This document shows positions 1 through 62,640 of a stretch of DNA of 64,000 nt, piece after piece. The number at the start of each line of letters is the position of its first letter. The first letter of the stretch is position 1. Under the pieces are notes generated by a model. The model was not told the DNA's origin, searched no databases, and saw only the letters and a program-made list of their open reading frames with translations. This DNA is from an uncultured Planctomycetales bacterium (lineage in GTDB: Bacteria; Omnitrophota; Gorgyraeia; Zapsychrales; JANLHA01): the NCBI GenBank assembly GCA_964595465.1, contig CAZQQI010000006.1:655-64654 (forward strand), in the 5' to 3' direction. Both the position numbers and the translations under genes were made by a program.

Positions 1-2
1 TG

Positions 3-236
3 GGAAGCCTGTTTGCCTACTGGCTGACCGGACCCGTGTGGAAACGCTGGCTGCTGTTTTTGTTTACCATCCCGATCGCGGTCATGACGAACGTGGTCCG
101 GGTGGTTTTTCTGTCCCTGATCGCCGAAATTTGGGGCCCGGGCGCCGCCGGCGGGATTATCCATGATATTTCCGGATTCGGAATTTTCGCGGTGGCGTTT
201 CTGCTGCTGCTTGCTGTCATGAAACTGATGGAGTAG
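3..236 (+). CDS. Exosortase (EpsH/Xrt family), C-terminal fragment; 5' end lies outside the window
   Basis: The frame is open from the window edge (…GSLFAYWLTGPVWKRWLLFLFTIPIAVMTNVVRVVF…). It shows hydrophobic terminal transmembrane helices with the conserved N..R motif (NVVRV) typical of the exosortase C-terminus. An EpsI gene follows immediately and PEP-CTERM cargo genes lie downstream. Confidence 0.7.
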   Translation, partial: GSLFAYWLTGPVWKRWLLFLFTIPIAVMTNVVRVVFLSLIAEIWGPGAAGGIIHDISGFGIFAVAFLLLLAVMKLME

Positions 237-238
237 GT

Positions 239-880
239 ATGGTAAAAAAGAGCCAAAATACATGTTTCGCTCTCCTGGCGGTGATTTTCACGGTCGTGAC
301 CATTCTGTCCTGGGCCTGGTATTTTAAAGCCGCACAGCAGAAGGATACCGTGAATATTCATGAGGCCTTTCCCATGGAGATCGGAGAATGGGTCGGCAAA
401 GAAATTCCTATTTCCGAAGATGATTATCAGATCCTGGAGAACCGCAACGCCTTTATAAGGATGTACCGCAATCCCGCCGGACAATGGGTCATGTTTTTCC
501 TGAATTATTCTCAGACCAACCGCAAGGCCGCTCACCCTCCCGAGATCTGCTTCAGCGGAGGAGGGGCGACCTTTACCGACCGTGAGCGTATTACAGTAGA
601 AGCCGGCAAAGGAGAAGAGATCGCTTTTAACCATGTCCTGGTGGATTTTCCGCGGTATCAGCAGGTGATGTACTACACATTCAAGTCCGGTGAAGAATTT
701 ATCCCCGGCTATCTCCGCCAGCAGATCAATGTCGTTCTCAAAACCGTGGGGAAGGGAGCTCCCAGCAGTTCACTGATCCGTCTGACCACAACGATCCGCA
801 ATGGTGATAAAAAAGCGGCAAACCGTCTCATCGAATCGTTTTTCCGCGACATTTACCCCCTCCTAAAAGACCTCCCGTAA
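239..880 (+). CDS. epsI: EpsI family protein (exosortase-associated, periplasmic)
   Basis: It starts 2 nt after the exosortase stop. It has an N-terminal transmembrane anchor and the conserved HPPEICFSGGG (H-x-PE-x-C) motif of the EpsI family. Confidence 0.7.
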   Translation: MVKKSQNTCFALLAVIFTVVTILSWAWYFKAAQQKDTVNIHEAFPMEIGEWVGKEIPISEDDYQILENRNAFIRMYRNPAGQWVMFFLNYSQTNRKAAHPPEICFSGGGATFTDRERITVEAGKGEEIAFNHVLVDFPRYQQVMYYTFKSGEEFIPGYLRQQINVVLKTVGKGAPSSSLIRLTTTIRNGDKKAANRLIESFFRDIYPLLKDLP

Positions 881-1303
881 AAAAATGGTGTCGGATCTCA
901 TAAGTCATTTCTTTCCAGTACTTTAGAATTAATTCAATTTTCATTACTCTTTTTTATTTAGAAGTTGCAAATCGAGTTTCGCAGCCGAATGGCTCATGGA
1001 GATCGGAAGGGGCGCGCAGAGCGAGTTCCGAACCGAACGATTCATTAGATAAACGTTCGGGAGGCTGTTTGAGCGAACGGGTCCCTCCTGATCTCTTTTA
1101 TTTTTATCTGATTGTCGTAATTCCTGCCAACGATGTCTCACTTAAACATTTGTTGTATCATTTCGACAAAAGAAAACGCTTTCTTTACATAGACAGTCAA
1201 TGACAATATGTGACAATACCAGCCAAAAAGCTCGAAATCGCTGAAATCCGGCATTATACGATGCGCTGGTCACAATTTTTTATTTCCAGAAATTTTCTGA
1301 CAT

Positions 1304-1319
1304 TGGCACGCTGTTTGCT
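1304..1319 (+). promoter_or_regulatory. Sigma-54 (RpoN) -24/-12 promoter: TGGCACG-N4-TTGCT
   Basis: A near-consensus TGGCACGctgtTTGCT lies about 30 nt upstream of the 1349 ATG, with the RBS aaggagaaag in between. A sigma-54-dependent NtrC-type regulator is encoded at 17033-18484 in the same window. Confidence 0.65.
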
Positions 1320-1348
1320 TCTTAGGAAGGTGAAGCAAGGAGAAAGTC

Positions 1349-2212
1349 ATGAAATTAAAAAACATATCCTCTAAAAAATTTGCAGCTGCCGCGTTTCTCA
1401 TGATGGCGGTGATTCTTATTCTGGGAACTACGGCCTACGCAACCTTGAGCCAATGGGAAAATTTTGATCTCGTTGAAACGTCGCTTACCCCCAATGTGCT
1501 AACTGCGTCCGATACCGGGGTGGCGGACCTTACTGCCGAGAATAAATCCCGGGCTCCCGAGCCCTCAACTATGGCTCTCTTGTTTACCGGCCTGTGCGGA
1601 GCTGTCGTGAGTTTTGTCCGCAAGACCTATCGCGCAACCAAACGTCTGCTTGATATTGCTGCCGGCATAACCGGCCTGATCGTTCTTTCACCCCTGTATG
1701 CCCTGGTTGCTTTGCTGATCAAATTGAGTTCGCGGGGGCCGGTATTTTATACCCAAACCCGGGTCGGGCAGTACGGCAGGGTGTTTACGATGTATAAATT
1801 CCGCACGATGAAAGTGGACGCGGAAAAAGAAACCGGAGCGGTCTGGGCAAAAGAAAGTGACGACCGCTTGATCCCGGTAGGGAAATTTCTGCGCAAGATG
1901 CATATTGACGAGATCCCGCAATTTGTGAACATATTGAAAGGGGATATGTCATTGATCGGTCCGCGTCCGGAGCGCCCTGAGTTTGTCGAAAAATTCAAGA
2001 CCGAAATACCGGAATATGAACGCCGGCTGATGGTCAAGCCCGGGTTGACCGGTTTGGCCCAGGTCCGTCATCATTATGACCGCACGATTGAGGATGTGCG
2101 CAAAAAAATTAAATTGGACTTACTCTATATTCGCAGGCTGTGTCTCTGGACCGATGTGCGCATCTTTTTTCGGACCTTTCGTGTGGTGCTGACGGGCGAA
2201 GGGGCCCACTGA
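1349..2212 (+). CDS. Chimeric protein: N-terminal signal peptide plus PEP-CTERM-like sorting motif/transmembrane helix, fused to a PglC/WbaP-C-type polyprenyl-phosphate sugar-phosphate transferase domain
   Basis: Residues 1-31 form a signal-peptide-like stretch (…TTAYA). Next comes an approximately 45-aa hydrophilic segment. Then …RAPEPSTMALLFTGLCGAVVSFVRK gives a PEP motif, a Gly-rich helix and a basic cluster. The canonical bacterial sugar transferase core follows (LLDIAAGITGLIVLSPLYALVALLIKLSSRGPVFYTQTRVG … KFRTM … DEIPQFVNILKGDMSLIGPRP … GLTGLAQV). Confidence 0.75.
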   Translation: MKLKNISSKKFAAAAFLMMAVILILGTTAYATLSQWENFDLVETSLTPNVLTASDTGVADLTAENKSRAPEPSTMALLFTGLCGAVVSFVRKTYRATKRLLDIAAGITGLIVLSPLYALVALLIKLSSRGPVFYTQTRVGQYGRVFTMYKFRTMKVDAEKETGAVWAKESDDRLIPVGKFLRKMHIDEIPQFVNILKGDMSLIGPRPERPEFVEKFKTEIPEYERRLMVKPGLTGLAQVRHHYDRTIEDVRKKIKLDLLYIRRLCLWTDVRIFFRTFRVVLTGEGAH

Positions 2213-2421
2213 TCTTTCAGAAAGTGATGGATTTCTCCGTGTTCCCCGGGGAGTTGTTCATATGTTTTTAATCTCCTTTGGGCATATGGATGCGGGATGT
2301 GTTTTGCCGAATATTTCGGACCACAAGATCCTGTCCGGGGAACGGAGAAAAATTTAAGCGAAGCCGCGTGATAGGAATGCAGGATAAGAAATAATACCTT
2401 AATGAAACGAGGGAGAAAATT

Positions 2422-3048
2422 ATGAAAGCGCTGAAAAATATGAAAAATTCCAACCGGGTCTATGTTCTGGGCGCCATGCTGGTAGGCGGGATTGTTCTAT
2501 TGATCCAGACCGGTGCGAGTGCCGTGTCCCTGAATCCTATTAATGGCCATTACTATGAGATCATAAGCGGGGAAACCGCGATCACCTGGGAACAGGCTAA
2601 TACACGGGCCAATAGTTCGGTTTTTGAAGGCCTGCAGGGGCATTTGGCAACGATCACTTCCCAGGAAGAAAATGATTGGCTCTCTAAAACCTTTGGAGCT
2701 TCTCATGCGGCCTGGCTGGGCGGGTATCAGGATAAAGAGGCCTTGGATTATGACGAGCCGGACGGCGGATGGCGCTGGGTAACAGGGGAAGAATGGGATT
2801 ACGCGCCCTGGGCGCCGGGTGAGCCAAATAACTGGGATCATGGTGATGATATCAATGAAGATAAGGTGCGTACTTGGCCGAATGATGGGCCGGAGATCGT
2901 AGTTAATGATGCTCCCAATGATCCCGGTACTCCGGTGGATAAGATCTACGTTGAGTACGAACCCGTGGCCACCCCGGAACCGGGCAGCATGGCTTTACTG
3001 GGGATCGGCTTATTAGGCGCGGCCGGATTCCGGCGTAAAAAGAAATAA
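2422..3048 (+). CDS. Secreted C-type lectin domain protein with C-terminal PEP-CTERM anchor
   Basis: It has a signal peptide. It carries the C-type lectin fold hallmarks NGHYYEI, TWEQA, LATITSQEENDWL, AWLGG and W.W..GE…W..GEPNN. The C-terminus is PEPGSMALLGIGLLGAAGFRRKKK. Confidence 0.75.
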   Translation: MKALKNMKNSNRVYVLGAMLVGGIVLLIQTGASAVSLNPINGHYYEIISGETAITWEQANTRANSSVFEGLQGHLATITSQEENDWLSKTFGASHAAWLGGYQDKEALDYDEPDGGWRWVTGEEWDYAPWAPGEPNNWDHGDDINEDKVRTWPNDGPEIVVNDAPNDPGTPVDKIYVEYEPVATPEPGSMALLGIGLLGAAGFRRKKK

Positions 3049-3078
3049 CGTGTATGACATTAAAGAAAGTGGTGCGAT

Positions 3079-3723
3079 GTGCGGAAGATCTTTTTGACAA
3101 CATTGATGATGACATTCATCTACGCGGTGCCGTCCTGGGCGTTCCCTCTGGCCAATTTCGGTTTTGAGACCCGCGATACAACCGGGTGGACCGAAGAGCT
3201 GAATAACGGTCAGATTTTAGTGACGCCTTCGCATAATGGTAGTGATGACAGTGTGGTTTATTCACCTCAGGAAGGAAATTATTTTCTTCGCCTGCAGGCC
3301 GGTGCGGCCGATACTGTTGTGAACGTGTACCAGGATTTTTCTTTGTTCGCGGGTCAGTCGATCACGGGAATGGCCGCTTTTGATGCCCGGGATTATGATC
3401 CGTATAATGATCGGGCATTCGTTCAGATTTTTGAGGCTGGAACGGATTTTTCATCAACTCTGTGGGAGGCCAGTGTCCTGCAGGACGGGAATCATGTCAA
3501 CGCGCCCTGGGAAGAATGGCGATTTACCGCGGAAACTACGGGAGAGTATCGTTTAACGTATGGGGTTGTCAATGATGATGACGCATTAAACAGCAGTTAC
3601 GCTCTGTTTGACGCCCGGCAGGAGCCTGTTGTGCCGGAACCTGCGAGCATGATGCTGTTTGCAACCGGTTTATTGGGCGCGGCCGGCAGCCGTTTGCGGA
3701 GTGCACGAAAGAGAAGTTCATAA
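3079..3723 (+). CDS. PEP-CTERM sorting domain-containing secreted protein
   Basis: It starts at GTG with a GAAAG RBS. The signal peptide is MRKIFLTTLMMTFIYAVPSWA. The C-terminus is VPEPASMMLFATGLLGAAGSRLRSARKRSS. Confidence 0.65.
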   Translation: MRKIFLTTLMMTFIYAVPSWAFPLANFGFETRDTTGWTEELNNGQILVTPSHNGSDDSVVYSPQEGNYFLRLQAGAADTVVNVYQDFSLFAGQSITGMAAFDARDYDPYNDRAFVQIFEAGTDFSSTLWEASVLQDGNHVNAPWEEWRFTAETTGEYRLTYGVVNDDDALNSSYALFDARQEPVVPEPASMMLFATGLLGAAGSRLRSARKRSS

Positions 3724-3775
3724 TTCACAATAAGCCATCTACAGAAGGTGTTTTTATAGATCGGGGAGAATAATA

Positions 3776-4639
3776 ATGAAATGTTTCCAAGGAAAGGGAC
3801 AAAAAATGAAAAAATTACTTACAGCAATAGCCGTAGTTGCTCTGGCTCTGGCTGTGCCGTCCGCGGCATCTGCCTTCAGTCTGGGTGATTACACCGGCGG
3901 AGTGACATTTGACTTCGTGAATTGGGATGTCGGGACAACCTATGATGCCGATACTTCGTTTGAAGATGGGGCGGACGGCGATGCCGACAGTTTCGGACTG
4001 GTTCGTGTGGATACCATCGATGCTCTAGGCGGAAATCCTCTTTGGCAGTCAACAGCGGCCAATGAATCTCTGCAGGGTTGGTTTTATGGGTTAGACGATA
4101 ATACAGTAGATATCGGCTCCGACTATTCCGGCACGATTGAATCCATCGGCGGATATGTTGATCTGTATTTAGTTCAGGGAGGACAGACGTTGGATCCTTT
4201 GGCAGCTCCTGCTCCGACCACTCCGATGACGGGATTGTCAGCTCCTGCTGATCAGTGGAATGCCACTGACGGTGAATTATTCCTGCGCTTGGAGTTTGTA
4301 CCGGGTGTGGTTTCCAGCCAGAATTCTACGTATTTTCAGGATATAACAACGATTACTAATCCGGTCTTTGGGACTGGACAGGGATATCTGTCTGTTGTCG
4401 GAGGCAGCCACGCAGCGCTGTTTGACAGCAACGCCTATAATGATGTGTTTCCGAATGCAGATTTTTATTTTTCTGACAGCTTTGATGATAGAGGTCTGAC
4501 CGCTGAACAGCAAGAGAACGGCTGGACGGTCTTCAGTGACGGCAAAGTCACAGGAAAAGCTGTACCGGAACCCGCCACCATGATGCTTTTGGGTGTCGGC
4601 CTGGCAGGTGGCGCGCTGGTTCGCCGCCGTCGGTCATAA
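3776..4639 (+). CDS. PEP-CTERM sorting domain-containing secreted protein
   Basis: It has a signal peptide; an alternative ATG at 3806 gives MKKLL… with an equally good RBS. The body is Gly/Asp/Thr-rich. The C-terminus is VPEPATMMLLGVGLAGGALVRRRRS. Confidence 0.7.
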   Translation: MKCFQGKGQKMKKLLTAIAVVALALAVPSAASAFSLGDYTGGVTFDFVNWDVGTTYDADTSFEDGADGDADSFGLVRVDTIDALGGNPLWQSTAANESLQGWFYGLDDNTVDIGSDYSGTIESIGGYVDLYLVQGGQTLDPLAAPAPTTPMTGLSAPADQWNATDGELFLRLEFVPGVVSSQNSTYFQDITTITNPVFGTGQGYLSVVGGSHAALFDSNAYNDVFPNADFYFSDSFDDRGLTAEQQENGWTVFSDGKVTGKAVPEPATMMLLGVGLAGGALVRRRRS

Positions 4640-4689
4640 GCGTTAGAGCAAGACGTATAAGAAATTGACCTTTCCTTATACCATAAAGG

Positions 4690-4721
4690 GCATTCCGTCT
4701 TCGGGCGGGGTGCCTTTTTTT
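4690..4721 (+). terminator. Rho-independent terminator closing the PEP-CTERM gene run
   Basis: The sequence is GCATTCCGTC-TTCG-GGCGGGGTGC, with a UUCG tetraloop, followed by CTTTTTTT. Confidence 0.6.
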
Positions 4722-4732
4722 GAGCTTACTGC

Positions 4733-4762
4733 TTGCCAGACCGCCTGCAGGACCGCTATAAT
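4733..4762 (+). promoter_or_regulatory. Sigma-70-like promoter (TTGCCA-N18-TATAAT)
   Basis: -35 TTGCCA at 4733-4738, an 18-nt spacer, -10 TATAAT at 4757-4762. The GAGGAGGG RBS at 4774-4781 and the ATG at 4786 follow. Confidence 0.45.
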
Positions 4763-4785
4763 ACATATCCTTGAGGAGGGTAGAT

Positions 4786-6180
4786 ATGTTCACAGCGTTA
4801 AAGCGCCGGAAAATTGTTCAGTTTTTACGTCAGACCGATTATGACCGCCTGCTTCGCCATGGCGAACAGCGTTTGATCAAGGCCTTTCAGCGCGCTGCCC
4901 GTCAGGTCCCGGCTTACCGTCAGATCCTCAGTCAGAATCATGTCCCGGTCAGCGCCATTCAGCGTCCGGAGCATTTTCAGGCCCATGTCCCCGTCATTGA
5001 CAAAAAGATCTTTTCCGCTTACCCGTTAGCAGATCTTTGCTGCGGCGGGCGTCTGGACAAGGTCGCTGCGGTGATGTCCAGTTCCGGATTTTCCGGTTCA
5101 TTCTCCTATTCTCTGAGCACGCAGTCCGATGCCGAACTGACCGCGGATGTTGTCGATGCCTTGCTCGATGCCCGTTTTGATGCCTTTAACCGCAAGACTT
5201 TATTTATCAGCTGCCTGGGCATGGGGGTCAAGGTGCCGACACGGCTTCCCCTGGCTGAGGTCGGACAGAGGGCCGATATCGCTCTGGCGGTGATCGAAAA
5301 ACTGCAGTTATATTACGAGCAGATCATCATTATTGGCAACACCTATTTTTTGAAAAAGCTTATTGAAGACGGGCGGGACCGCGGCCTCGATTGGCCGCGT
5401 CTGAGGGTCCATGTGATCATGGGGGAAGACTGGTTTCCCGAATCCTACCGGGATTATCTGTCTTCTCTGCTGGGGATCTCAATGGATCATCCGCATACCA
5501 GTTCAGTTATGTCCACGATGGGGATCAGTGAGCTGGGTATCAGTCTCTTTCAGGAAGATGAGGATCTGGTGCGCATTCGGCGTATGGCGGTCAAGAATGA
5601 ACAGTTTTCCCGCGCTCTGTTCGGCCGGAACCTGCCGTTTACGCCGCTGATCTTTTATTACAATCCTCTTCAGGTCTATGTTGAGGAGGTGGAGGGTGAA
5701 CTGGTTTTTTCGAATCTTTCGCCTGACGCCATCCTCCCGTTGATGCGCTATGCCCCGCATGATCTCGGCGGCTGTATTAGCCGGGCGCGCTTAAAAAATG
5801 TGCTTCATGATTTTGGTGTCAGTGAGCTGATGCCGTCTTGGCCTCTTCCGCTGGTCTGGGTAGGAGGACGCGCCGGCAAGACCCTTGATGTCGACGGGCA
5901 AAATGTTACCCCGGAACAGATCAAAGCGCTGCTCTACAGCCATCCCGCGTTGGCGCAGGTGACAACGGGATATTTTCATTTATCCGGCAAACGACGGAAG
6001 CTGGTGATTGAGATCCAGCTAAAACCGGGGATCGACCCGGATGTCACTTTGCACAAAACAGCCCAGTCTGTTTTTTCGGGACTCACTCCCCGCAAACCGG
6101 AGATCACGATCTATCCGTACATAGAATTCCCCTACGGGATCGAACTGAATTATGAAGGAAAGTTCCGTTATGTGGGGTAG
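4786..6180 (+). CDS. Adenylate-forming enzyme, phenylacetate-CoA ligase/CapK/F390-synthetase-like (ANL superfamily)
   Basis: The ORF opens at TTG 4771 but the first ATG with an RBS is 4786. It has a P-loop-like SSSGFSGSFSYS motif and the overall PaaK/CapK-like architecture. It lies downstream of the exosortase/PEP-CTERM genes. Confidence 0.5.
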   Translation: MFTALKRRKIVQFLRQTDYDRLLRHGEQRLIKAFQRAARQVPAYRQILSQNHVPVSAIQRPEHFQAHVPVIDKKIFSAYPLADLCCGGRLDKVAAVMSSSGFSGSFSYSLSTQSDAELTADVVDALLDARFDAFNRKTLFISCLGMGVKVPTRLPLAEVGQRADIALAVIEKLQLYYEQIIIIGNTYFLKKLIEDGRDRGLDWPRLRVHVIMGEDWFPESYRDYLSSLLGISMDHPHTSSVMSTMGISELGISLFQEDEDLVRIRRMAVKNEQFSRALFGRNLPFTPLIFYYNPLQVYVEEVEGELVFSNLSPDAILPLMRYAPHDLGGCISRARLKNVLHDFGVSELMPSWPLPLVWVGGRAGKTLDVDGQNVTPEQIKALLYSHPALAQVTTGYFHLSGKRRKLVIEIQLKPGIDPDVTLHKTAQSVFSGLTPRKPEITIYPYIEFPYGIELNYEGKFRYVG

Positions 6181-6206
6181 GATGGTGTGCGCTGATATTC
6201 AGGCAG

Positions 6207-6234
6207 TTTTTGTGCGGCCTAACCGGCACAAAAA
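6207..6234. terminator. Bidirectional hairpin between convergent genes
   Basis: TTTTGTGC-ggcctaacc-GGCACAAAA is an inverted repeat, centred between the + gene stop at 6180 and the - gene stop at 6274. Confidence 0.35.
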
Positions 6235-6273
6235 TCCGCCGATCAGATCATATTGTTTTTATGAAAGACGTGA

Positions 6274-7416
6274 TCAGAAATGCCATTTCAGCTGAACGTA
6301 ATACACATTTTCTGAATCCCCGAATTCCGTGTCGTTATCTCCCCAATAAAATTGAATGCCAGCCCCGATGTCCAGGTTTTGCCGGACGTTATAATTGATT
6401 TCGGGGTTATACGCCGCGCTGCCGCCTTCCAGATCACAGATAAAAAATTGATCCCAAATGATAAGCGGGGTGAATTTGTACTGCCACCAGAGGCTGGCGA
6501 GGTGTTTTCTCAGCGAGAGCAGATCGCGGGAATTCCTCAGGGAGTTGAGCAGGGCAAGGGGGTTATTTTCATCTGCGCCGCCGTTGTAAAAATATTCGAT
6601 CAGTCCGTAGGTCTTTTGATCAAAGGTGTAATCCAGACCCACTGCGGCCCGGGCAAACTGCCGGTTATCGTCCATGGTCGTATGCGTGACCTCTCCCCGG
6701 AAACCGGCATCCTGCAGATACCCGTCCCAGGTCAATCCGAAAATATCCGCTTCCTGCCGGTTGGCTGCGATGAAAGCGGTGTCAAAATCCCCAAGTTGTG
6801 TGTAGGCTTTGAGTCCGTAGGAGGAATCCTCCGCCCCGTCACCGGGCAGGGCAACCAGAGAGACCCCTTTAAATCCGTCGGGAGAATAGTTGAATGTGAC
6901 CCCGTCGATGCCGATACGTTCATCATATTCCAAGTCTAGTGGTCCGTTGGGATTAAAAAGGTCTGCCGGGCTGTAAAACCGCAGGTTGCCCCAGTCGACA
7001 GCCTGTTTTCCCGCCGCGGCCTGCCATTGCGGGGAATAATATTTCACGTATAAACGGTAGATCTTGTGATTGAGGTACAGATGGTCATTATCGACTGAAG
7101 CATGGTCCAGGTCAACATTGACGGCTTGATCCTGTTCTTTGTTGTGAATGGTCTGAAAATCTCCGGTATTGCCGAAGTCGTGAATGAGCGCCTCATTGTC
7201 CACCGCGATATAAAACTGCCAGGGATCATTGTGCGCCTCCATGGTCAGGCGCAGGCGGTTGAGATTGGCATTGATATCCTCTTCACTGTAAACGGATCGT
7301 GTATAAGTGTGGAGATTTTTGTAATATCCGCCGAAATCAAAGACCGGCGCGGCCTGGGCAGGGAGGGCTGAGAAAAGAAGAGTGGATAATACCGGGATAA
7401 GGCAGAGGTAGCGCAT
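6274..7416 (-). CDS. Outer-membrane beta-barrel protein (uncharacterised family), last gene of the Lol-like export operon
   Basis: It has a signal peptide (…ALPAQA), alternating amphipathic beta-strand-like segments rich in Y/G/D/N, and a C-terminal …QLKWHF with terminal aromatic Phe, typical of BAM substrates. Confidence 0.55.
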   Translation of the reverse strand: MRYLCLIPVLSTLLFSALPAQAAPVFDFGGYYKNLHTYTRSVYSEEDINANLNRLRLTMEAHNDPWQFYIAVDNEALIHDFGNTGDFQTIHNKEQDQAVNVDLDHASVDNDHLYLNHKIYRLYVKYYSPQWQAAAGKQAVDWGNLRFYSPADLFNPNGPLDLEYDERIGIDGVTFNYSPDGFKGVSLVALPGDGAEDSSYGLKAYTQLGDFDTAFIAANRQEADIFGLTWDGYLQDAGFRGEVTHTTMDDNRQFARAAVGLDYTFDQKTYGLIEYFYNGGADENNPLALLNSLRNSRDLLSLRKHLASLWWQYKFTPLIIWDQFFICDLEGGSAAYNPEINYNVRQNLDIGAGIQFYWGDNDTEFGDSENVYYVQLKWHF

Positions 7417-7420
7417 GGGA

Positions 7421-8110
7421 TCACTCCTTGGTTTGGTCGAGAATCATACCGTCGCGGATATGGACCAGACGGCGGGCCTTATCCATAACCAGAGGATCGT
7501 GGGTGGAAAAGACAAAGGTGACCTCTTTGTCCGCATTCAATTCTTTCATGAGTTCAATCAAAGATTCGGATGTGGCCGAATCCAGGTTGGCCGTCGGTTC
7601 ATCAGCGATAATAAGGCGGGGTTCGGCGACAATAGCCCGGGCCACAGCCACGCGCTGCTGCTGACCTCCGCTCATCTCATTGGGGAAGCGGTCAAGATAA
7701 TCCGCTAAACCGACGCGGCTTAAGGTGTCCTGTGCCCGGCGGGTGCGTTCTTCCGGCGCAAGGCCCTGCAGCAGCATAACGTATTCGACATTTTCCCGTG
7801 CGGTCAGGGTGTTGATCAGGTTATAGGCCTGAAAAATAAAGCCCAGAGAGCGGAGGCGGAAATCAGAAAGCTGGTCAGGACTGAGACTGGAAATATCCCG
7901 GTCTGCAAAATGTACCGTTCCGGCGGTCGGGTTGTCCAGGGCGCCGATGATATTCAGCAGAGAACTTTTGCCTGATCCAGAAGGTCCGGCAATGGCCAGG
8001 AAATCTCCGGAAAAGATATCCAGGGTGACCCCGCGCAATGCCGGTGTGGTGATGTCGCGTCCGGTCGTGTAGGTCTTGTGCAGATTGTTGATCCGTAATA
8101 ATGGTGTCAT
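7421..8110 (-). CDS. ABC transporter ATP-binding protein, LolD/MacB-ATPase-like
   Basis: Walker A GPSGSGKSSLL, ABC signature LSGGQQQRVA and Walker B LIIADEPT are present. It overlaps the upstream permease gene by 4 bp (ATGA). Confidence 0.85.
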   Translation of the reverse strand: MTPLLRINNLHKTYTTGRDITTPALRGVTLDIFSGDFLAIAGPSGSGKSSLLNIIGALDNPTAGTVHFADRDISSLSPDQLSDFRLRSLGFIFQAYNLINTLTARENVEYVMLLQGLAPEERTRRAQDTLSRVGLADYLDRFPNEMSGGQQQRVAVARAIVAEPRLIIADEPTANLDSATSESLIELMKELNADKEVTFVFSTHDPLVMDKARRLVHIRDGMILDQTKE

Positions 8111-9333
8111 AAGCTTCTTATCGCCTCAATGGGTTTCAGACGGGAGGCCAGCCAGGCCGGATAAATCGATACGCAGATGCTGGTAATCAGCACCAGGGCC
8201 GTGGAGACGGTTGTGTACATGGTGTTCAGACGGGGATAAATGACAGGGTCCATATAAAATGATGACAGCGCGCTGGTAAAAATTCCTAGATCAATGCCCT
8301 GGACATGAAACAGGGCAGTCAGGGAAATGCCCAGAATGGCGCCCATTAGACTGCCGATGCATCCCAGAAAGACGGATTCCCAGGCCACCATGGTCACGAT
8401 CTGCCCCCGCTTGGTACCCAGGGCCAGCAGAATGCCGAATTCGCGTGTGCGTTCTAGAACGCCCATGAGAACGGTGTTGAGGATGCCGATCGCCACGACG
8501 ATCATGACGATAAAGACAATGACCCAGATAAAGGTATTATCAAAATCGATCCATTGTTTCATGATTGGGGATACGGTCTGCCAGGGCAATATTTCCAGAG
8601 TATCAGTGTCCAGACGGGACCGGATCAGGTCTGCCATCTCTTGTGCCCGGTCGCCGCGTTGCAGTTTCAGCGCGATTTCCGATGTTTTATCCTGCATGAC
8701 AAAAAGGTTTTCCGCGGCCCGGTGGGTGATCAGGACCAGTCCGCGGTCGATCTCTTCGACTCCGCTGTCGATCAATCCGGAAATATAATAAGCGCTCGCG
8801 GCAATGCTGCCGTCCAGGGCCTGGGACATGATTACGATCTTGTCGTCAAGGCTGACCTTCAGGCCAGCGGCCAGATCTTTGCCGATCACGATGGTGTCGT
8901 TTTCTTCCGCAGAAAGAAAATTCCCCTCGCCCAGGCTTTTGTGCAGGCTGCTGATCCGGGTTTCTTTGTCCGGGTCCACCCCCAGGATCAGGGCACCGGA
9001 AGAAGATTCTGAAGAACTGATCAGGCCCTGAGCCCGGATACGCGGAGCGGAATAGCGGACACCCTCGATCGCGCGGATCCTTTCGAGCAGAGGGGCGGGG
9101 TCCTCAATATAGGTCTCAAGTTTTTGATGTTCGTGGAATCCCCGGGCATGGATCTGAATGTGTCCGATGGACAGGGACGTGTAATTATCGATCATCTGGA
9201 AGTGGGCGCCTTCGACGAAAGACCAGATAAAGATCAGTGCGCCGAGGCCGAAACCCACCGCGGATATGGTAATGAGCGAGCGCTTGCGGTTGCGGGTGAT
9301 GTTTCGCCAAGCTATCTTAAGGAAAGTGCGCAT
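8107..9333 (-). CDS. ABC transporter permease, FtsX/LolC/LolE family
   Basis: It has an N-terminal transmembrane helix, a large periplasmic domain and three C-terminal transmembrane helices (FtsX topology). Its 4-bp overlaps with both neighbours are typical of the MacB/LolCDE type II ABC exporters. Confidence 0.8.
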   Translation of the reverse strand: MRTFLKIAWRNITRNRKRSLITISAVGFGLGALIFIWSFVEGAHFQMIDNYTSLSIGHIQIHARGFHEHQKLETYIEDPAPLLERIRAIEGVRYSAPRIRAQGLISSSESSSGALILGVDPDKETRISSLHKSLGEGNFLSAEENDTIVIGKDLAAGLKVSLDDKIVIMSQALDGSIAASAYYISGLIDSGVEEIDRGLVLITHRAAENLFVMQDKTSEIALKLQRGDRAQEMADLIRSRLDTDTLEILPWQTVSPIMKQWIDFDNTFIWVIVFIVMIVVAIGILNTVLMGVLERTREFGILLALGTKRGQIVTMVAWESVFLGCIGSLMGAILGISLTALFHVQGIDLGIFTSALSSFYMDPVIYPRLNTMYTTVSTALVLITSICVSIYPAWLASRLKPIEAIRSL

Positions 9334-9335
9334 AC

Positions 9336-10091
9336 TTAAGGAGTTCGTTTGAGATACGTCCGTGTAAAAATATTCGGTTCGATCGGGGTGTTGTATTCGA
9401 CTTGCTCGACAACGATAACGGTCTGGTGCCCCTTTTTGATCTGCGAGGTCATGGTCCAGGTCCGGGGGATCTCTCGGTCGTTGACCGGCCCGATATCGCT
9501 GTAGGTCAGGACTTTCACCAGCCGTCCCCGTTCATCATAATATTCTTCTTTGAGAGGGACCGCGTCGGACTGGCGGACCCAGAGCAGGATCTTTCCCCAT
9601 ATGACCGGGGCGTCGGGTTTGGGGTCCAGGCGGATCTTATAGGCCTCGTTTCCGCTGATGGTTTCTTGGCCGACGATCGTATGGGTGTAATCATGCACGA
9701 TACTGCTTTGTTTGACCAGGTCATCGTTAGTGAAATCGCTGCCCATCCAGGGCTGAAGCATCATAGACGGAGGGATCTTGATGATCTTCTCGACGCTGGG
9801 GAGGTAGTTCCACATTTCATTACCGATGCGCAGAGACCCGATGCCGGCTTCTTTGGCCGGGGAGAGAATGCGGATGAAGGTTTTTTCTTTATCCTGGCTC
9901 CAAACATTCAGCGTGAGCTGGCGTTCCCAGCGGGGCGTGGTAACTGTCATGCGGTAAGTTCCGGCATTGCTCTGGCCCTGCATAATATTATCAGACCGGC
10001 GGACCAGTTCTGTAGCATCCGGCGCCTGCGCGATAGCGGTTCCCGCCGTGAAAAGTATCATTAGAAAGGGAATTAATCGTTTGCCGTTCAT
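9336..10091 (-). CDS. Outer membrane lipoprotein-sorting protein, LolA-like fold (periplasmic)
   Basis: It has a signal peptide (…TAIAQA). Its size and motifs are consistent with the LolA/RseB-like 'outer membrane lipoprotein-sorting protein' family (…EMWNYLPS…QPWMGSDFTNDDL…). It is the first gene of an operon with the FtsX permease, the ABC ATPase and the outer-membrane protein. Confidence 0.55.
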   Translation of the reverse strand: MNGKRLIPFLMILFTAGTAIAQAPDATELVRRSDNIMQGQSNAGTYRMTVTTPRWERQLTLNVWSQDKEKTFIRILSPAKEAGIGSLRIGNEMWNYLPSVEKIIKIPPSMMLQPWMGSDFTNDDLVKQSSIVHDYTHTIVGQETISGNEAYKIRLDPKPDAPVIWGKILLWVRQSDAVPLKEEYYDERGRLVKVLTYSDIGPVNDREIPRTWTMTSQIKKGHQTVIVVEQVEYNTPIEPNIFTRTYLKRTP

Positions 10092-10097
10092 GGTTTG

Positions 10098-10109
10098 TAT
10101 GATATCATA
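10098..10109. promoter_or_regulatory. Perfect 12-bp palindrome TATGATATCATA in a 75-bp divergent intergenic region
   Basis: It sits between the divergent starts at 10091 (-) and 10167 (+). A -10-like TATAAT lies at 10134-10139. Confidence 0.3.
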
Positions 10110-10166
10110 AAATCAAAGCTGAGCGAACCTTTTTATAATAAAATCAATGACTTAGAGCAGTCTATC

Positions 10167-10883
10167 ATGGGTGAACAATTTTCTTTTTTGTGTGTCGATC
10201 CATCGGATCAATCCATGATGGAGCAGATCTACCGCCTCCGTTTGAGGGTGTACGGGGAAGAGTGCGGATTTATCGATCCTAAGGATTATCCCGAAGGCAT
10301 GGAACGGGATGGCTATGATGATCAGGCAGCGCATTTTGTGGCTCTGGGAGAGCCCGGAGATGTGATCGGATATTTGCGTATGATCCTTCCGGGGAAATTA
10401 CAGCTTCCTTTTGAAGAGCATTTTCCTGAGCTGCAGATCGATCCGGATATCCGTACGGCCGGCGCCTACAGCGAGATTTCCCGGCTGGTGATCAGCAAAC
10501 GCCTGCGCCGTCGTCGTCATGATGGAATATATTATGAGCCGGAATTTCAGGACCGTGTGGTCAAGGCTGAAGACGGGCAGGAATTTATGCGCCGCGCTAA
10601 ACCCATGGCATTCGGTCTGTACCGGGAGATGTATCAGGAAAGCAAGCGCCGCGGGTTGAAAGAATGGTATTCGATTATGGAAAAGACGCTTTGGATCCTG
10701 CTTAAAGTCCATGGCTTTAATTTTAAATGTGTCGGAGAAGAGGTTGATATTTTCGGCCCAGTCCGTCCGTACCGGGGAAATATTGCCGGGATTGAAGAAG
10801 AGATTCGGACTAAGCATCCGGATTTTTGGGCTTATTTTACTGGAGATTCCTCCTGGGGTGTGCAGACGTCCCGGGTTTTTTAA
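10167..10883 (+). CDS. N-acyl amino acid synthase, PEP-CTERM/exosortase-system-associated type (LuxI/GNAT-like fold)
   Basis: The first ATG is at 10167 (MGEQFSFLCV…). The upstream TTG at 10095 would leave only 3 nt to the divergent gene. The family-typical N-terminus (…EQIYRLRLRVYGEECGFID…HFVALGEPGDVIGYLRMI) matches the exosortase-associated N-acyl amino acid synthase family. Confidence 0.6.
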   Translation: MGEQFSFLCVDPSDQSMMEQIYRLRLRVYGEECGFIDPKDYPEGMERDGYDDQAAHFVALGEPGDVIGYLRMILPGKLQLPFEEHFPELQIDPDIRTAGAYSEISRLVISKRLRRRRHDGIYYEPEFQDRVVKAEDGQEFMRRAKPMAFGLYREMYQESKRRGLKEWYSIMEKTLWILLKVHGFNFKCVGEEVDIFGPVRPYRGNIAGIEEEIRTKHPDFWAYFTGDSSWGVQTSRVF

Positions 10884-10898
10884 TCTGCGGTTTTTATT

Positions 10899-13850
10899 AT
10901 GACCTTATCCTCGCGTCATATCTATCAGGCGTTTCTGGATTCCGCGGAAGCTCACCGGGAAAAAGATGCCGTCCTTTATCAGCACGGCAAAAATTTCATT
11001 TCACAGAATTATGCGTGGCTGGAACGCCGTTCCCGCATCATGGCCCGGCAATTATGCCGAAAGCATCATATTCGACCAGGCGATCGGGTGGCACTGCTTT
11101 TGGAAAATCATCCGGAATTTGCCTGGTCTTTCCTGGGGGTTCTGGCGGCGGGAGGCGTTGTTGTTCCGCTTGATGTCCAGTATTCACCAGGTCAGATCCT
11201 GCGCATCTGTGAGCATGCCGGAGCGAAAATCGTGATCTCCCAGACGTCCCTGGATTATTCTCAATCCACCAAAGGTTCACTGCAATGGATTTTCGTGAAC
11301 GATCTGTCCGGCGATGAAAATGTTCCGTCCCAGCCATTATCAGACATAGAGGTGCCGGGAGGAGACGATCTCGCGGCCCTGTTCTATACTTCCGGGACGA
11401 CCGGAGAGCCGAAGGGGGTGATGCTGACTCACAATAATCTTCTGGCCAATGTTGACGCGATCCGGAAGATTAAGGTTGCGGTTGCTGATGATGTGGTCCT
11501 TTCCATGCTGCCTCTGCATCATACCTATGCGTTTACCACGACATTACTGACGCCGCTGTTGATCGGGGCCACGATCGCGTATCCCAAAAGCATTGCTTCA
11601 TCTGATCTGATGTACTGCATTAAGCAGGCCTGTGTGACGTTAATGGTCAGTGTCCCTGAAGTCTTCAAACTTCTACACCAGGCAGTTAAAAGGCAGATGG
11701 GTTCTCTGCCGCTCATGAAGCGCGCAGTTGCCCACTATGGCGGACAGCTGGCGTTGCCTCTGCGTAAACATATGCGCGTAAACGCCGGTAAAATGATTTT
11801 TCGGGATGTGCACCGCATCTTCGGCCCCTGTCTGAGGATGATGATCTCCGGCGGGGCTAAGCTGGATGCAGAGGTCGTCCGGGATTTTTACCGCTGGGGG
11901 TTTGCCCTGATCGAAGGATATGGCCTGACCGAGACATCTCCGGTCGTGGCGTTTTCTCTGCCGGACGATGCGCGCTTTGGTTCCGTCGGGAGGCCCTTGC
12001 CGGGAGTTGAAGCCGCCCTTTACGGGACGGATGAGAAAGGGGAGGGGGAAATCATTGTCCGCGGGCCGAATGTCATGCAGGGATATTACCGCAGTCCGGA
12101 AGAAACCCGCAAGGTCTTGCGTGACGGGTGGCTGTTTACCGGAGATTTGGGATCCATCGAGGCTGACGGATCGCTGACCATTAACGGACGGAAAAATGAT
12201 ATGATCGTGCTGAGCAGCGGGGAGAATATCTATCCGGCTGAGTTGGAAGAGATCTATGCCCGGACCCCGATGATCAAAGAGATCGGTGTGTTTGCCCGCG
12301 ATCCCGTTCATGAGGGCAGAGCTCAGCAGCTGGCAGCGGTTATTGTTCCGGATATCGGATATTTTCAGGAGATAGGCGAAGTCGATATCCGCGGAAAGCT
12401 CAAATGGGAATTAGAAAATATTTTTTCTTCTCTGCCCTCATATAAGCGGCTGGCCGGTTTTGTCATTTTCCGTCAGGATCTTCCCCGCACCCGGTTGGGC
12501 AAGCTCAAACGTTTTGAACTGCCGCATATTTATACTACAATCCAATCCTCCGGGAAGCTCGAACCATCCCGGGAGGAGGCATCCGTGGATAAACAGCCGG
12601 AACTTTTAACCCACGGGCCTCAGCTGGCGCTCACGTATTTGCAGAAACGTCTGGACCGCGAGGTTTCCATGTCGGATCATATTGAATTGGACCTGGGTCT
12701 GGATTCGCTGGAGCGCATTGAGGTCTTGCTGGAGATGCAGGAGAGCCTAGGGCTGGAAGTGCCGGAAGAAGATCTGATGGCGTTTTTTTCCTGCCAGACG
12801 GTGGGCGAGCTGTTTGAACGCCTTAAGGAGCTCCTTCGCCATCAGGCCGGCGCCGGGGATAAAGACGAAGATATGACCCTGCTGACCCAAAGCGCGCTTG
12901 CCTATATCAATAAACAGCTTAATGTTTCGGCTCAGCCGCAAGATCATCTTGAGCTCGATCTGGGTTTAGATTCTCTGGGCAGGATCGAATTGCTTATGGG
13001 CCTGCAGGAGCATCTTGGTCTTGAACTGAGTGAAGACGAGGCGATGTCGTTTTTTCAGTGCCAGACCATCAGCGAACTGATGTCCCGTCTGCAGGTGGTG
13101 ATCGGAAAAGAAACCATTCATGGTCACTGGGGTGAAGTCTCCTGGGAAGATATTATGAGGCAGGACCCTTCGGAACAGAGGAAGGAATCGCTGAGGCTGA
13201 ACGGGACAGGAATTGGGGGGAAGGCACTGAATTTTTTTCTGGCGATGCTACTTAAGATGCTTTTTAAGGTATTCTTTTTATTACGTATCGAAGGGAGGGA
13301 GCGTTTGCCTGATAAGGGGCCCTATGTGATCTGCCCCAATCATACTACGTATTTGGATGCTTTGTTCGTTATGGCCGCTCTGCCGTTCCCGGTTCTTCTG
13401 CAGACCTTTTTTCTCGGCGACGATCGTTTTTTGTCTCGAGGTCCGTTGAGATACTGTCACCACGTTTTGAGGCTGATCCCGATTAAATTCACCTTTGATA
13501 TGGTCGACGCGCTGCGTACCTGTGCGTATGTTCTCAAGCATAATCGGATCGTGTGCTATTTTCCGGAAGGACAGCGCACCGTCGGTCATGAGATCGGAAA
13601 GTTTAAGAAGGGCATTGGGATTCTGCTGAAAGAGGCCGCAGTCCCGGCCGTACCGGTTTACCTTAAGGGGGGAGAGAAGGTCTGGCCTCGAGGACGCAAA
13701 TGGCCCCGGCCCGGGAGGATCCGTGTGGTGGTCGGCGAGCCGGTTTATCCTGAAACGCTGCATTTTGAATTGACCGCTCAGGAAGACCCCTATATGCGTA
13801 TCGCTGAAAAGCTGAAAGAAAAGATGAGAAACCTTAAAGATACTTATTAA
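10899..13850 (+). CDS. Four-domain fusion: acyl-AMP/CoA ligase (AMP-binding), ACP, ACP, then 1-acyl-sn-glycerol-3-phosphate acyltransferase-like (PlsC/LPLAT) domain
   Basis: The AMP-binding core motif is YTSGTTGEPKGVMLTHNN. Two phosphopantetheine attachment sites are LDLGLDSLERIE (Ser codon at 12705-12707) and LDLGLDSLGRIE (Ser codon at 12974-12976). The C-terminal acyltransferase carries the HX4D motif (CPNHTTYLDA) and FPEGQRT. Confidence 0.8.
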   Translation: MTLSSRHIYQAFLDSAEAHREKDAVLYQHGKNFISQNYAWLERRSRIMARQLCRKHHIRPGDRVALLLENHPEFAWSFLGVLAAGGVVVPLDVQYSPGQILRICEHAGAKIVISQTSLDYSQSTKGSLQWIFVNDLSGDENVPSQPLSDIEVPGGDDLAALFYTSGTTGEPKGVMLTHNNLLANVDAIRKIKVAVADDVVLSMLPLHHTYAFTTTLLTPLLIGATIAYPKSIASSDLMYCIKQACVTLMVSVPEVFKLLHQAVKRQMGSLPLMKRAVAHYGGQLALPLRKHMRVNAGKMIFRDVHRIFGPCLRMMISGGAKLDAEVVRDFYRWGFALIEGYGLTETSPVVAFSLPDDARFGSVGRPLPGVEAALYGTDEKGEGEIIVRGPNVMQGYYRSPEETRKVLRDGWLFTGDLGSIEADGSLTINGRKNDMIVLSSGENIYPAELEEIYARTPMIKEIGVFARDPVHEGRAQQLAAVIVPDIGYFQEIGEVDIRGKLKWELENIFSSLPSYKRLAGFVIFRQDLPRTRLGKLKRFELPHIYTTIQSSGKLEPSREEASVDKQPELLTHGPQLALTYLQKRLDREVSMSDHIELDLGLDSLERIEVLLEMQESLGLEVPEEDLMAFFSCQTVGELFERLKELLRHQAGAGDKDEDMTLLTQSALAYINKQLNVSAQPQDHLELDLGLDSLGRIELLMGLQEHLGLELSEDEAMSFFQCQTISELMSRLQVVIGKETIHGHWGEVSWEDIMRQDPSEQRKESLRLNGTGIGGKALNFFLAMLLKMLFKVFFLLRIEGRERLPDKGPYVICPNHTTYLDALFVMAALPFPVLLQTFFLGDDRFLSRGPLRYCHHVLRLIPIKFTFDMVDALRTCAYVLKHNRIVCYFPEGQRTVGHEIGKFKKGIGILLKEAAVPAVPVYLKGGEKVWPRGRKWPRPGRIRVVVGEPVYPETLHFELTAQEDPYMRIAEKLKEKMRNLKDTY

Positions 13851-13917: not shown

Positions 13918-14796
13918 GTGATCATGACGACAAAATTCTCACCCGGACAGTTCTTTTCTTTGCTCCGTTCCGCAGTTCAGACCATCATTCACCATCCTCT
14001 TATCCTTTATCCTTTCACAATTTTATTTATGCTTCAGCTCTTCATTATGGAGATCCTGTTTTTTGCTCCACGCTATCCGTTATCGCAATTCTTTTCCCCG
14101 GTTATAAGCAGGCTTGCCGGAGAGCAGTTTCTGCATTATCCCTTAAATTTCATGCTTCTTAACCGCTGGTTTCAGAGTATTCAAATCCCCTTTTATCTGT
14201 TTGTGTCCTCGTTTTTTATCGGCGCTGCGGTTTACGCGATTTATTTGATCAATCGGGATGAAAACTTGAATTGGGGGAAGGTTTTCAAGAGGACGCTTAA
14301 GCAGTATATTCATTTGGTGGTAGCCGCGGCGATTTCGGTTGGTTTTGTGTATATCCTCAGCTGGCTTTATAGCCTGCTGGTGCAGCGCGCCTTGCAGATA
14401 CGCTCAACCGCGGGGATCTATTTTATGATCAAGAAGGCCGTGATCCTGGGCGCGCCCTATGCCAATTTATTATTTTCTACGTTGATCATTACTATGTTTG
14501 CGTTCGTTATTCCTATTATCATGATCGAGGGGAAAAAGGTTTTTTCAGCCTTTGCTCAAAATTTTAAGGTGCTTGGCGGGGTTTTCTGGATGTTATTCCT
14601 GGCGATGCTGGCATCCGGTTTGTTTTACCTCCCTGTCCTTTTATTGCGTTCCAACGCGGAGTGGGGCAGGAGCGTTTTTAGTCCGGAGATGTGGCAGATC
14701 CTCATGATCGCGGGTGTGGCCTTAATGCTCGTGATCGATGCCGTGCAGTATACCGCTATAACTATGACGTACTTGCTAAAAAAGGATGCGGAATGA
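13918..14796 (+). CDS. Polytopic membrane protein, function unknown
   Basis: It has about 7 predicted transmembrane helices and no recognisable catalytic motif. It overlaps the next gene by ATGA. Confidence 0.5.
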   Translation: MIMTTKFSPGQFFSLLRSAVQTIIHHPLILYPFTILFMLQLFIMEILFFAPRYPLSQFFSPVISRLAGEQFLHYPLNFMLLNRWFQSIQIPFYLFVSSFFIGAAVYAIYLINRDENLNWGKVFKRTLKQYIHLVVAAAISVGFVYILSWLYSLLVQRALQIRSTAGIYFMIKKAVILGAPYANLLFSTLIITMFAFVIPIIMIEGKKVFSAFAQNFKVLGGVFWMLFLAMLASGLFYLPVLLLRSNAEWGRSVFSPEMWQILMIAGVALMLVIDAVQYTAITMTYLLKKDAE

Positions 14797-52069: not shown

Positions 52070-52073
52070 AAAT

Positions 52074-55237: not shown

Positions 55238-55238
55238 T

Positions 55239-56234: not shown

Positions 56235-56240
56235 AAATAA

Positions 56241-57515: not shown

Positions 57516-57516
57516 T

Positions 57517-60684: not shown

Positions 60685-60695
60685 AAGTTAAAAAT

Positions 60696-61889: not shown

Positions 61890-61910
61890 TTGTATGGGTG
61901 CCTATTTGAA

Positions 61911-62636: not shown

Positions 62637-62640
62637 GTAA

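Follow-up and report, generated by a model that had tools for sequence, protein, structure and literature searches.

In a 64,000 nucleotide stretch of DNA from an uncultured Omnitrophota bacterium (GenBank: GCA_964595465.1, contig CAZQQI010000006.1, positions 655 to 64,654), called the window in this study, we found a gene for a predicted phosphoglycosyl transferase (PGT) that carries a PEP-CTERM-like sorting module in front of its catalytic domain. The best explanation of the sequence is a small PglC-type polyprenyl-phosphate sugar-1-phosphate transferase, in which the PEP-CTERM-type module would be the sole true membrane-spanning segment. With modest confidence, we favour the reading that this segment of PEP motif, transmembrane helix and basic residues is an exosortase recognition element, which would bring the priming enzyme to the sorting enzyme. 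The parts are known, and we regard as new their combination, in which a PGT has a PEP-type anchor that is conserved across its family.

A PEP-CTERM-like module inside a phosphoglycosyl transferase

The PGT gene and its promoter consist of the following features.

1304..1319, + strand: sigma-54 type -24/-12 promoter, TGGCACGCTGTTTGCT, a perfect TGGCACG-N4-TTGCT
1349..2212, + strand: PGT gene with PEP-type anchor, 287 amino acids plus stop, one unbroken open reading frame (ORF)
1349..1441, + strand: predicted Sec-type signal peptide (residues 1-31) with a Lys-rich n-region, a 15 amino acid hydrophobic core and A-Y-A at -3/-1 (residues 29-31)
1442..1552, + strand: predicted periplasmic spacer (residues 32-68), sequence-unconstrained, with a conserved [KR]-S-R at its end
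1553..1624, + strand: PEP-CTERM-like module (residues 69-92), APEPSTMALLFTGLCGAVVSFVRK, matched by TIGR02595 and PF07589
1625..1729, + strand: juxtamembrane linker (TY...KR..D) and re-entrant membrane helix (residues 93-127), aligning to WbaP (PDB: 8t53) and PglC (PDB: 8g1n)
1730..2209, + strand: predicted cytoplasmic PGT catalytic domain (residues 128-287, Pfam: PF02397) with the Asp-Glu dyad D187-E188 at 1907..1912

A Shine-Dalgarno-like AGGAGAA lies seven bases 5' of the ATG. Following the A-x-A rule of signal peptidase I, the signal peptide would be cleaved after A-Y-A; by column counts, A29 is found in 98 and A31 in 109 out of 116 family sequences. The spacer of ~37 residues is followed by KSRAPEPSTMALLFTGLCGAVVSFVRK, then by TYRATKRLLD and then by the sugar-phosphate transferase domain. 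An entropy of ~3-3.8 bits per column at positions 35-65 means that the spacer is under essentially no constraint, and in the AlphaFold2 (AF2) model its predicted local distance difference test (pLDDT) score is below 50 over residues 46-62, a disordered stretch. The first-pass annotation, made by a model from the DNA sequence alone, had put the periplasmic segment at approximately 45 amino acids, which is too long, as only about 37-38 amino acids separate A-Y-A from PEP.

On the whole protein the module was matched by TIGR02595 (PEP_CTERM) at residues 69-92 with 20.2 bits (cutoff 16) and by PF07589 (PEP-CTERM) with 23.2 bits (gathering score 20.7). With this hidden Markov model (HMM) check, the proposal of the first-pass annotation that a PEP-CTERM module precedes the PGT is confirmed. 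When the 37 amino acid PEP stretch was scanned alone, the scores were 25.7 and 27.0, respectively. The tails of the three PEP-CTERM cargo proteins encoded downstream reach, in gene order, 27.1, 18.6 and 26.4 bits with TIGR02595 and 31.6, 28.0 and 32.2 bits with PF07589. The module had been described as exactly like these tails; with TIGR02595 it scores inside the cargo range, and with PF07589 slightly under it.

The segment reads APEP-STMALLFTGLCGAVVSFV-RK..R..KR, so that a PEP tripeptide, a hydrophobic helix of the characteristic ~13-17 residues and a basic cluster are all present, the last one looser than the RRRR usual for cargo. It differs from a PEP-CTERM in its location. PEP-CTERM modules lie at most about ten residues from the C-terminus (Haft et al. 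2006, PMC1569441), whereas here 195 residues follow the 24 amino acid module. Out of 27 aligned family members, 26 match PF07589 at E ≤ 0.01.

Conservation of the module in homologues

As homologue set we used the 120 best database matches, which are 55-70% identical to the window protein (bar an identical entry) and nearly all 270-300 amino acids long, with most covering ~90-100% of the query. They are mostly proteins from metagenome-assembled genomes of Candidatus Omnitrophica/Omnitrophota and come from many independent assemblies (NCBI, JGI, ENA, Logan). The motif is kept in all 120 homologues, as PEP in 118 and as PES in two. P70 and E71 are found in 120 out of 120 and P72 in 118 out of 120, and the conservation of P70 and E71 equals that of the catalytic residues. 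T74, L77, G81, G84, R91, Y94, K98, R99 and D102 vary little or not at all, P115, D187 and E188 are invariant, and S114 is found in at least 90%. The distance from PEP to KFRTM is exactly 80 residues in 117 of the homologues, and the number of residues after the module has a family median of 194 and a range of 191-195. Judged by these sequences, the anatomy is a conserved family feature and no one-off.

Precomputed matches of PF07589 and PF02397 are already present together on 55 out of the 120 homologues, meaning that the domain pair is implicit in the databases through precomputed Pfam matches. Where source records give a name, it is no more specific than sugar transferase or polyprenyl glycosylphosphotransferase, and most of the proteins currently go by 'sugar transferase'.

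Two neighbouring genes, one for a PEP-CTERM protein and one for a PglC-type enzyme, could have been joined by a frameshift or a missed stop during assembly or annotation, which the first-pass annotation had itself named as the case that would overturn its proposal. We found no evidence supporting such an artefact. The ORF is continuous in all 120 homologues from independent assemblies with a fixed spacing between PEP and KFRTM, there is no stop or frame change within residues 69-100, and a protein identical to the window PGT is found on two independent contigs. This explanation is refuted, and we give it practically no probability.

The catalytic domain and its predicted structure

The Bac_transf family (Pfam: PF02397) matches residues 98-281 with 229.8 bits (gathering score 27), covering profile positions 1-178 of 179. 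The catalytic motifs KFRTM, IDEIPQ (with D187-E188) and GPRPERP are present, and the Ser-Pro break of the re-entrant helix is S114-P115; the complete monotopic PGT with re-entrant helix, KFRTM, DEIPQ and GPRP that had been read from the sequence is indeed there. The exopolysaccharide polyprenyl glycosylphosphotransferase model TIGR03025 matches residues 90-286 with 305.4 bits (cutoff 295.55), but this match spans only profile positions 250-444 of 445, and the window PGT lacks the N-terminal two-thirds of the family architecture. TIGR03013, the XrtA/PEP-CTERM system glycosyltransferase (EpsB2), stays under its cutoff of 393.35 with 253.8 bits at profile positions 251-442 only.

The AF2 model (mean pLDDT 79.7) has helices at residues 8-43, 72-112 and 114-127 with a break at residue 113/114, and the second helix begins straight after PEP, at residue 72. 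In a Foldseek search with this model the sole significant matches were PglC (PDB: 8g1n, 8e37) and WbaP (PDB: 8t53), with E-values from 6e-12 to 1e-11 and a probability of 1.00. A phmmer search against the PDB sequences likewise found 8t53 (5.4e-34). Since the modelled fold and the catalytic dyad agree with PglC and WbaP, the enzyme looks intact.

We also considered whether the PEP helix could be the leftover last helix of a WbaP-type enzyme. This was rejected: the profiles of large PGTs align only from position ~240-250 on, and that start corresponds to the linker before the re-entrant helix and not to a transmembrane helix.

An Arg/Lys-rich insertion of ~20-35 amino acids between the RVG motif and KFRTM is found in some relatives (P0148, P0150, P0170, P0175, P0177, P0395, P0396). 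It is absent from the window PGT and from PglC.

The exosortase locus

The PGT gene is located in a locus with an exosortase gene, three PEP-CTERM cargo genes and a regulator pair.

1..236, + strand: 3' end of an exosortase gene with conserved Arg (TNVVRVV) and His (IHDISG) motifs; its start lies left of the window
239..880, + strand: EpsI, exosortase-associated periplasmic protein (TIGR02914 81.1 bits, cutoff 42.8; PF11984 105.4 bits)
2422..3048, + strand: PEP-CTERM cargo 1 with a C-type lectin domain (PF00059 26.1 bits, gathering score 22.6)
3079..3723, + strand: PEP-CTERM cargo 2
3776..4639, + strand: PEP-CTERM cargo 3, start at 3806 in the source record
15697..16998, + strand: sensor histidine kinase, whose position after a TPR gene is conserved in L085, L086 and L088
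17024..18484, + strand: sigma-54-dependent response regulator (PrsR-like; TIGR02915 395.1 bits, below the cutoff of 502.6)

The full exosortase gene, on the same contig (L001:63-890), matches TIGR02602 with 173.7 bits (cutoff 105.55) and TIGR04178 with 71.7 bits (cutoff 23). Its Cys residue lies in VDDVCSG. It stays below the cutoffs of all named subtypes (XrtA, XrtB, XrtD, XrtV, XrtW and others), with 187.5 bits for XrtD (400), 176.5 for XrtW (425) and 170.9 for XrtA (208). The exosortases of L003, L088 and L091 likewise reach no named-subtype cutoff and match only the generic TIGR02602.

The order exosortase, EpsI, PGT, cargo is also found in L003, L083, L084, L085, L086 and L088. Exosortase and EpsI genes lie within 10 kb of the PGT gene in the window locus (L001), L003, L083, L084, L085, L086, L088, L091 and the P0293 locus, and in L087 EpsI is seen beside a locus end. 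In L092 five PEP-CTERM cargo genes come straight after the PGT gene. In every locus with enough flank, the PGT gene is near exosortase, EpsI and PEP-CTERM cargo genes. Two exosortase builds accompany the PGT, namely a separate exosortase and EpsI, and a 545 amino acid exosortase-EpsI fusion (L091 and the P0293 locus).

The site at 1304..1319 is the sole zero-mismatch TGGCAC-N5-TTGCW in the window. A perfect element lies 29-69 nucleotides 5' of the PGT start in six out of six Omnitrophota loci (L001, L003, L083-L086), each of which (13-16 kb) has no other perfect sigma-54 site. The placement of the gene beside exosortase and EpsI and behind a sigma-54 promoter, as originally described, is borne out by these data. 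The PrsR-like regulator is likely the activator of the promoter at 1304. A scan of 850..6300 for sigma-70 promoters and terminators gave only matches at chance level.

Cargo 1 is a sugar-binding cargo beside a sugar-priming enzyme, and in L084 a lectin domain is likewise present in the gene that comes next after that of the PGT. Small PF05635 (23S_rRNA_IVP) genes are found between or beside exosortase and EpsI in L084 (5365..5724), L085, L087 and L088, with none seen in the window locus.

Four forms of the family and what they say about the motif

With a profile spanning PEP to KFRTM we searched 1.84 billion cluster representatives, and ~35 clusters at the 50% identity level bear PEP, helix and PGT. 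The fusion architecture is found in Omnitrophota and Planctomycetota/Phycisphaerae, so the occurrence elsewhere that the first-pass annotation had suggested looking for is real. A scan of a genome collection with the PEP-to-KFRTM alignment gave mostly generic KFRTM matches; among the matches listed, L003 is the only true fusion. L013 and L072 were rejected as PEP-PGT fusions and are ordinary large PGTs.

The relatives fall into four forms, in which the part ahead of PEP ranges from 0 to ~220 amino acids. Form A is that of the window and of Omnitrophota, with predicted signal peptide, spacer, PEP helix and PGT. Form B, found in Planctomycetota/Phycisphaerae and 218 amino acids long, starts with MPEP[VIL]T and has no signal peptide. 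PEP lies within the first 16 residues in 119 out of 120 form B members and at residues 2-4 in 108 of them; in the 106 members whose length is exactly 218 amino acids, E3, P4, T6, R23, F26 and D34 do not vary. In L091 (form B) there is an in-frame stop 13 codons 5' of the start. The form B genes adjoin the exosortase-EpsI fusion gene (L091 and the P0293 locus) or stand straight before the five cargo genes (L092). In form C a cargo domain precedes the module. In P0148, P0395 and P0396 this is a choice-of-anchor N domain, which is followed by PEP-CTERM and the PGT; the matches of P0148 reach 53.8 bits for the domain (NF038141, cutoff 40) and 21.8 bits for PEP-CTERM (cutoff 16). P0397, a stand-alone cargo protein with a normal C-terminal PEP-CTERM, shares 58% identity with the form C ectodomain. 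In form D (P0169, P0156, P0159, P0160, P0197 and P0233) the PEP motif is decayed, while the helix and the RR.F...KR..D linker are retained. Forms A, B and C have just one element in common, which consists of PEP, helix, basic linker and PGT. In a neighbour-joining tree of the catalytic domains, which has no support values, all PEP-bearing enzymes are located in one part, with two large non-PEP enzymes nested inside.

In the cargo-domain fusion locus L087 (6322..9377), the PEP segment of the PGT, PEPGTLLLFGTGLLGMIGSFARK, is nearly identical to the two upstream cargo tails, PEPGSMLLFGTGLIGLIGIGRRR, which suggests a recent fusion or gene conversion.

Form C brings up the explanation that the protein is a pro-protein or polyprotein. 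PEP would then be a true exosortase cleavage site, the N-terminal part would be sorted as cargo, and the PGT would be a leaving group that is matured, activated or co-produced stoichiometrically. The layout of signal peptide, ectodomain or spacer, PEP, transmembrane helix and basic cluster is that of a cargo protein, and the choice-of-anchor N domain of P0148, P0395 and P0396, with its stand-alone paralogue P0397 ending in a normal PEP-CTERM, could leave the inner membrane only if it is cut off. The near identity of the L087 PGT tag to the adjoining cargo tails also fits. By analogy to sortases, a large cytoplasmic domain should be no worse than a basic tail at holding a sorting signal in the membrane. 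Against this stands the Planctomycetota clade, in which PEP is invariant at residues 2-4 although nothing releasable lies in front of it. Moreover, the piece released in the window's family would be an unconstrained ~37 amino acids, and in some relatives 8-15 amino acids. We consider this explanation improbable.

Form D leads to the explanation that signal peptide and helix are merely topogenic or anchoring elements, replacing the four helices of WbaP, and that PEP is a relic of the fusion or a helix cap. The PEP-degenerate relatives keep the two-helix layout and the linker, P0169 is still within a PEP-CTERM locus, and several clades fall under the PEP-CTERM HMM thresholds. In addition, the N-terminal parts of other monotopic PGTs are dispensable for catalysis, as seen for PglC in comparison to WbaP. 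However, a relic would be expected to drift, and P70 and E71 are kept in all 120 homologues beside a freely drifting spacer. Nor would a relic last as an N-terminal MPEP in 108 out of 120 members of another phylum, and the position of the PGT by exosortase, EpsI and cargo is conserved over both exosortase builds. We regard a plain anchor as unlikely, and it retains some weight because of the PEP-degenerate relatives.

Proposed docking at the exosortase

The motif is the tag of the cargo proteins and its constant neighbours are exosortase, EpsI and cargo genes, which points to exosortase as its reader. This idea gains strength from the comparative data: PEP hardly varies across two phyla, form B starts with MPEP, form C has a genuine cargo domain before the segment, and the sorting genes lie close by in the loci with enough flank. 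That PEP is invariant at the extreme N-terminus of form B, where nothing can be released, argues for recognition rather than cargo release. We therefore prefer, as the somewhat more probable role of the segment, docking of the PGT at the exosortase.

In the proposed mechanism, the sigma-54 promoter would drive the PGT gene, probably via the kinase and sigma-54 regulator pair of the locus. The signal peptide would carry the N-terminus over the inner membrane and would then be removed at A-Y-A, which would leave a short unconstrained tail in the periplasm with PEP at the periplasmic face. The Gly-rich helix would span the membrane, with basic residues, re-entrant helix and catalytic domain on the cytoplasmic side, where monotopic PGTs act. 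A PEP-CTERM tail and a monotopic PGT both have the orientation predicted in this way. The co-encoded exosortase, together with EpsI, would read the PGT segment as it reads a cargo tail, and the lipid-linked sugar would be made at the site where PEP-CTERM cargo is processed. In forms that bear an extension, such as the window gene and the cargo-domain forms, exosortase may also cut at the motif, with the PGT as a membrane-bound leaving group. The architecture of form C argues that the site is also cut, at least there, and cleavage of the window PGT is possible. The coupling of glycan initiation to sorting through targeting to, or processing by, exosortase, as the first-pass annotation had put forward, is partly supported by these data and remains an interpretation.

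Several observations weigh against docking at the exosortase. In P0169 the motif position reads FFPLTM, yet its gene comes after two PEP-CTERM cargo genes (L089, 3.6 kb contig); as P0169 still adjoins such genes, the PEP motif is not strictly required in every lineage. The other five form D members have no PEP motif either, and on the L090 contig with P0156 no exosortase is visible within its 10.7 kb. TIGR02595 has no match at E ≤ 0.01 in the Planctomycetota clade and in several divergent members, despite PEP, transmembrane helix and RR. Rare long-tailed PEP-CTERM copies were already seen by Haft et al. (2006), who held them to be possibly non-functional (PMC1569441). The PGT modules co-vary only weakly with the cargo tails of their own locus, with p = 0.011 when all loci are taken but p = 0.08, driven by one locus, in the Omnitrophota-like set. 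Finally, no further glycosyltransferase, flippase or polymerase was found in the exosortase operon, and the nearest glycan cluster (50228..63960, - strand, all genes on the same strand) lies ~48 kb from the PGT. It consists of genes for radical SAM/SPASM, pyruvyl transferase, methyltransferase, epimerase and glycerophosphotransferase-like enzymes, two GT2 and one GT4.

Further genes of the locus

Between the cargo genes and the regulator pair, the following features were annotated.

4771..6180, + strand: PaaK-like protein, 469 amino acids, without Pfam match; only its N-terminus resembles phenylacetate-CoA ligase, and weakly so (29 bits)
6274..10091, - strand: four-gene block of a 380 amino acid secreted protein, then LolD-like ATPase, LolC/E-like permease and LolA-like protein (PF17131)
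10095..10883, + strand: PEP-CTERM/exosortase-associated acyltransferase with FeeM-like N-acyl amino acid synthase fold (TIGR03694 159.6 bits, cutoff 111.95)
13918..14796, + strand: conserved protein, 292 amino acids, without Pfam or NCBIfam match

The gene order in the window is exosortase, EpsI, PGT, three cargo genes, PaaK-like gene, probable outer-membrane protein, Lol-like genes and acyltransferase, and then the AMP-ligase/ACP/acyltransferase fusion, the 292 amino acid protein, TPR, histidine kinase, sigma-54 regulator and a PocR/GAF protein. L083 has a 471 amino acid gene without Pfam match at a position similar to that of the PaaK-like gene and repeats a similar LolD/LolC/E/LolA block. 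The 380 amino acid protein has no family match and ends with ...KWHF, which resembles the C-terminus of outer-membrane proteins, and it is a probable outer-membrane protein. The Lol-like block suggests a dedicated export route for lipids or lipoproteins within the exosortase locus.

Next after the TIGR03694 gene is a 983 amino acid fusion of AMP-ligase, acyl carrier protein (ACP) and PlsC-acyltransferase, the pair spanning 10095..13850 on the + strand, and together they resemble a module for making acyl compounds or lipids that is tied to exosortase. Pairs of FeeM-like genes are also present in L091 and the P0293 locus, both from Phycisphaerae.

Genes of 289-291 amino acids without family match precede the TPR gene in L085, L086, L087 and L088, followed by kinase and sigma-54 regulator in L085, L086 and L088, which marks the 292 amino acid protein as a conserved member of the system. 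Its ORF in the window overlaps the next ORF call (14691..15692) by ~100 nucleotides, and probably the start of one of the two was called wrongly. A 714 amino acid ORF at 21210..23354 (- strand) has no Pfam match at E ≤ 0.01.

Comparison with known systems and implications

The window PGT shares with PglC of Campylobacter (PDB: 8g1n, 8e37) the catalytic fold, the Ser-Pro re-entrant helix, the KFRTM/DE/GPRP motifs and a catalytic part of ~190 amino acids. PglC, however, lacks a membrane-spanning segment, its chain beginning with the re-entrant helix, whereas the window PGT has ~95 extra N-terminal residues, made up of the predicted signal peptide, the spacer and the PEP-type helix. The large PGTs of EpsB2/TIGR03013 and WbaP/WcaJ type (PDB: 8t53) have the same catalytic domain, but with four N-terminal helices, a cytoplasmic domain and no PEP motif. 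EpsB2 is genetically linked to PEP-CTERM/exosortase systems and is needed for floc formation, and RpoN/PrsK/PrsR are genetically tied to PEP-CTERM systems as well (PMC9850573). The EpsB2-exosortase link is at the operon level, while in the window PGT the sorting tag is built in.

With PEP-CTERM cargo the PGT has in common the variable region and the PEP motif with its Gly-rich helix and basic residues, along with a predicted signal peptide, the exosortase/EpsI neighbours and sigma-54 control. It differs from cargo in the 195 enzyme residues after the module and in its ectodomain, which is a spacer only and is absent in the Planctomycetota clade. Furthermore, [KR]-S-R-A is conserved before PEP in the PGT, whereas the local cargo tails have V/I/T-PEP.

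Archaeosortase ArtA and the PorU/anionic lipopolysaccharide pathway of the type IX secretion system (PMC7468200), which take off a C-terminal signal and attach the cargo to an acceptor linked to the membrane, offer an analogy only. Synthesis of these acceptors needs dedicated sugar or lipid enzymes, which are not known to carry a sorting signal themselves. For exosortase, the molecule that accepts the cargo has yet to be identified (PMC12188702), and since 2006 the link between exosortase and exopolysaccharide has been one of gene neighbourhood only (PMC1569441, PMC12188702). In a full-text literature search we found no paper on a PEP-CTERM module inside a PGT, with a mention in Haft 2012 or in the monotopic-PGT network paper being possible.

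More speculatively, exosortase might hold the PGT via the PEP helix and use its polyprenyl-PP-sugar, or a glycolipid derived from it, as acceptor for the cargo, with the extended forms releasing a fresh PGT as leaving group in each sorting event. We think this is doubtful; if true, the sugar specificity of the PGT would define the anchor of the exosortase cargo.

With this family, the monotopic PGT superfamily gains a new architecture at its N-terminal end. The family also indicates that a PEP-CTERM signal can be under strong selection without being C-terminal, which bears on the annotation of such signals. That this build is conserved across hundreds of uncultured bacteria suggests a physical link between sugar priming and protein sorting, and a large family with an exosortase tag on its glycan-priming enzyme would offer a concrete handle on how sorting ties to glycan synthesis.

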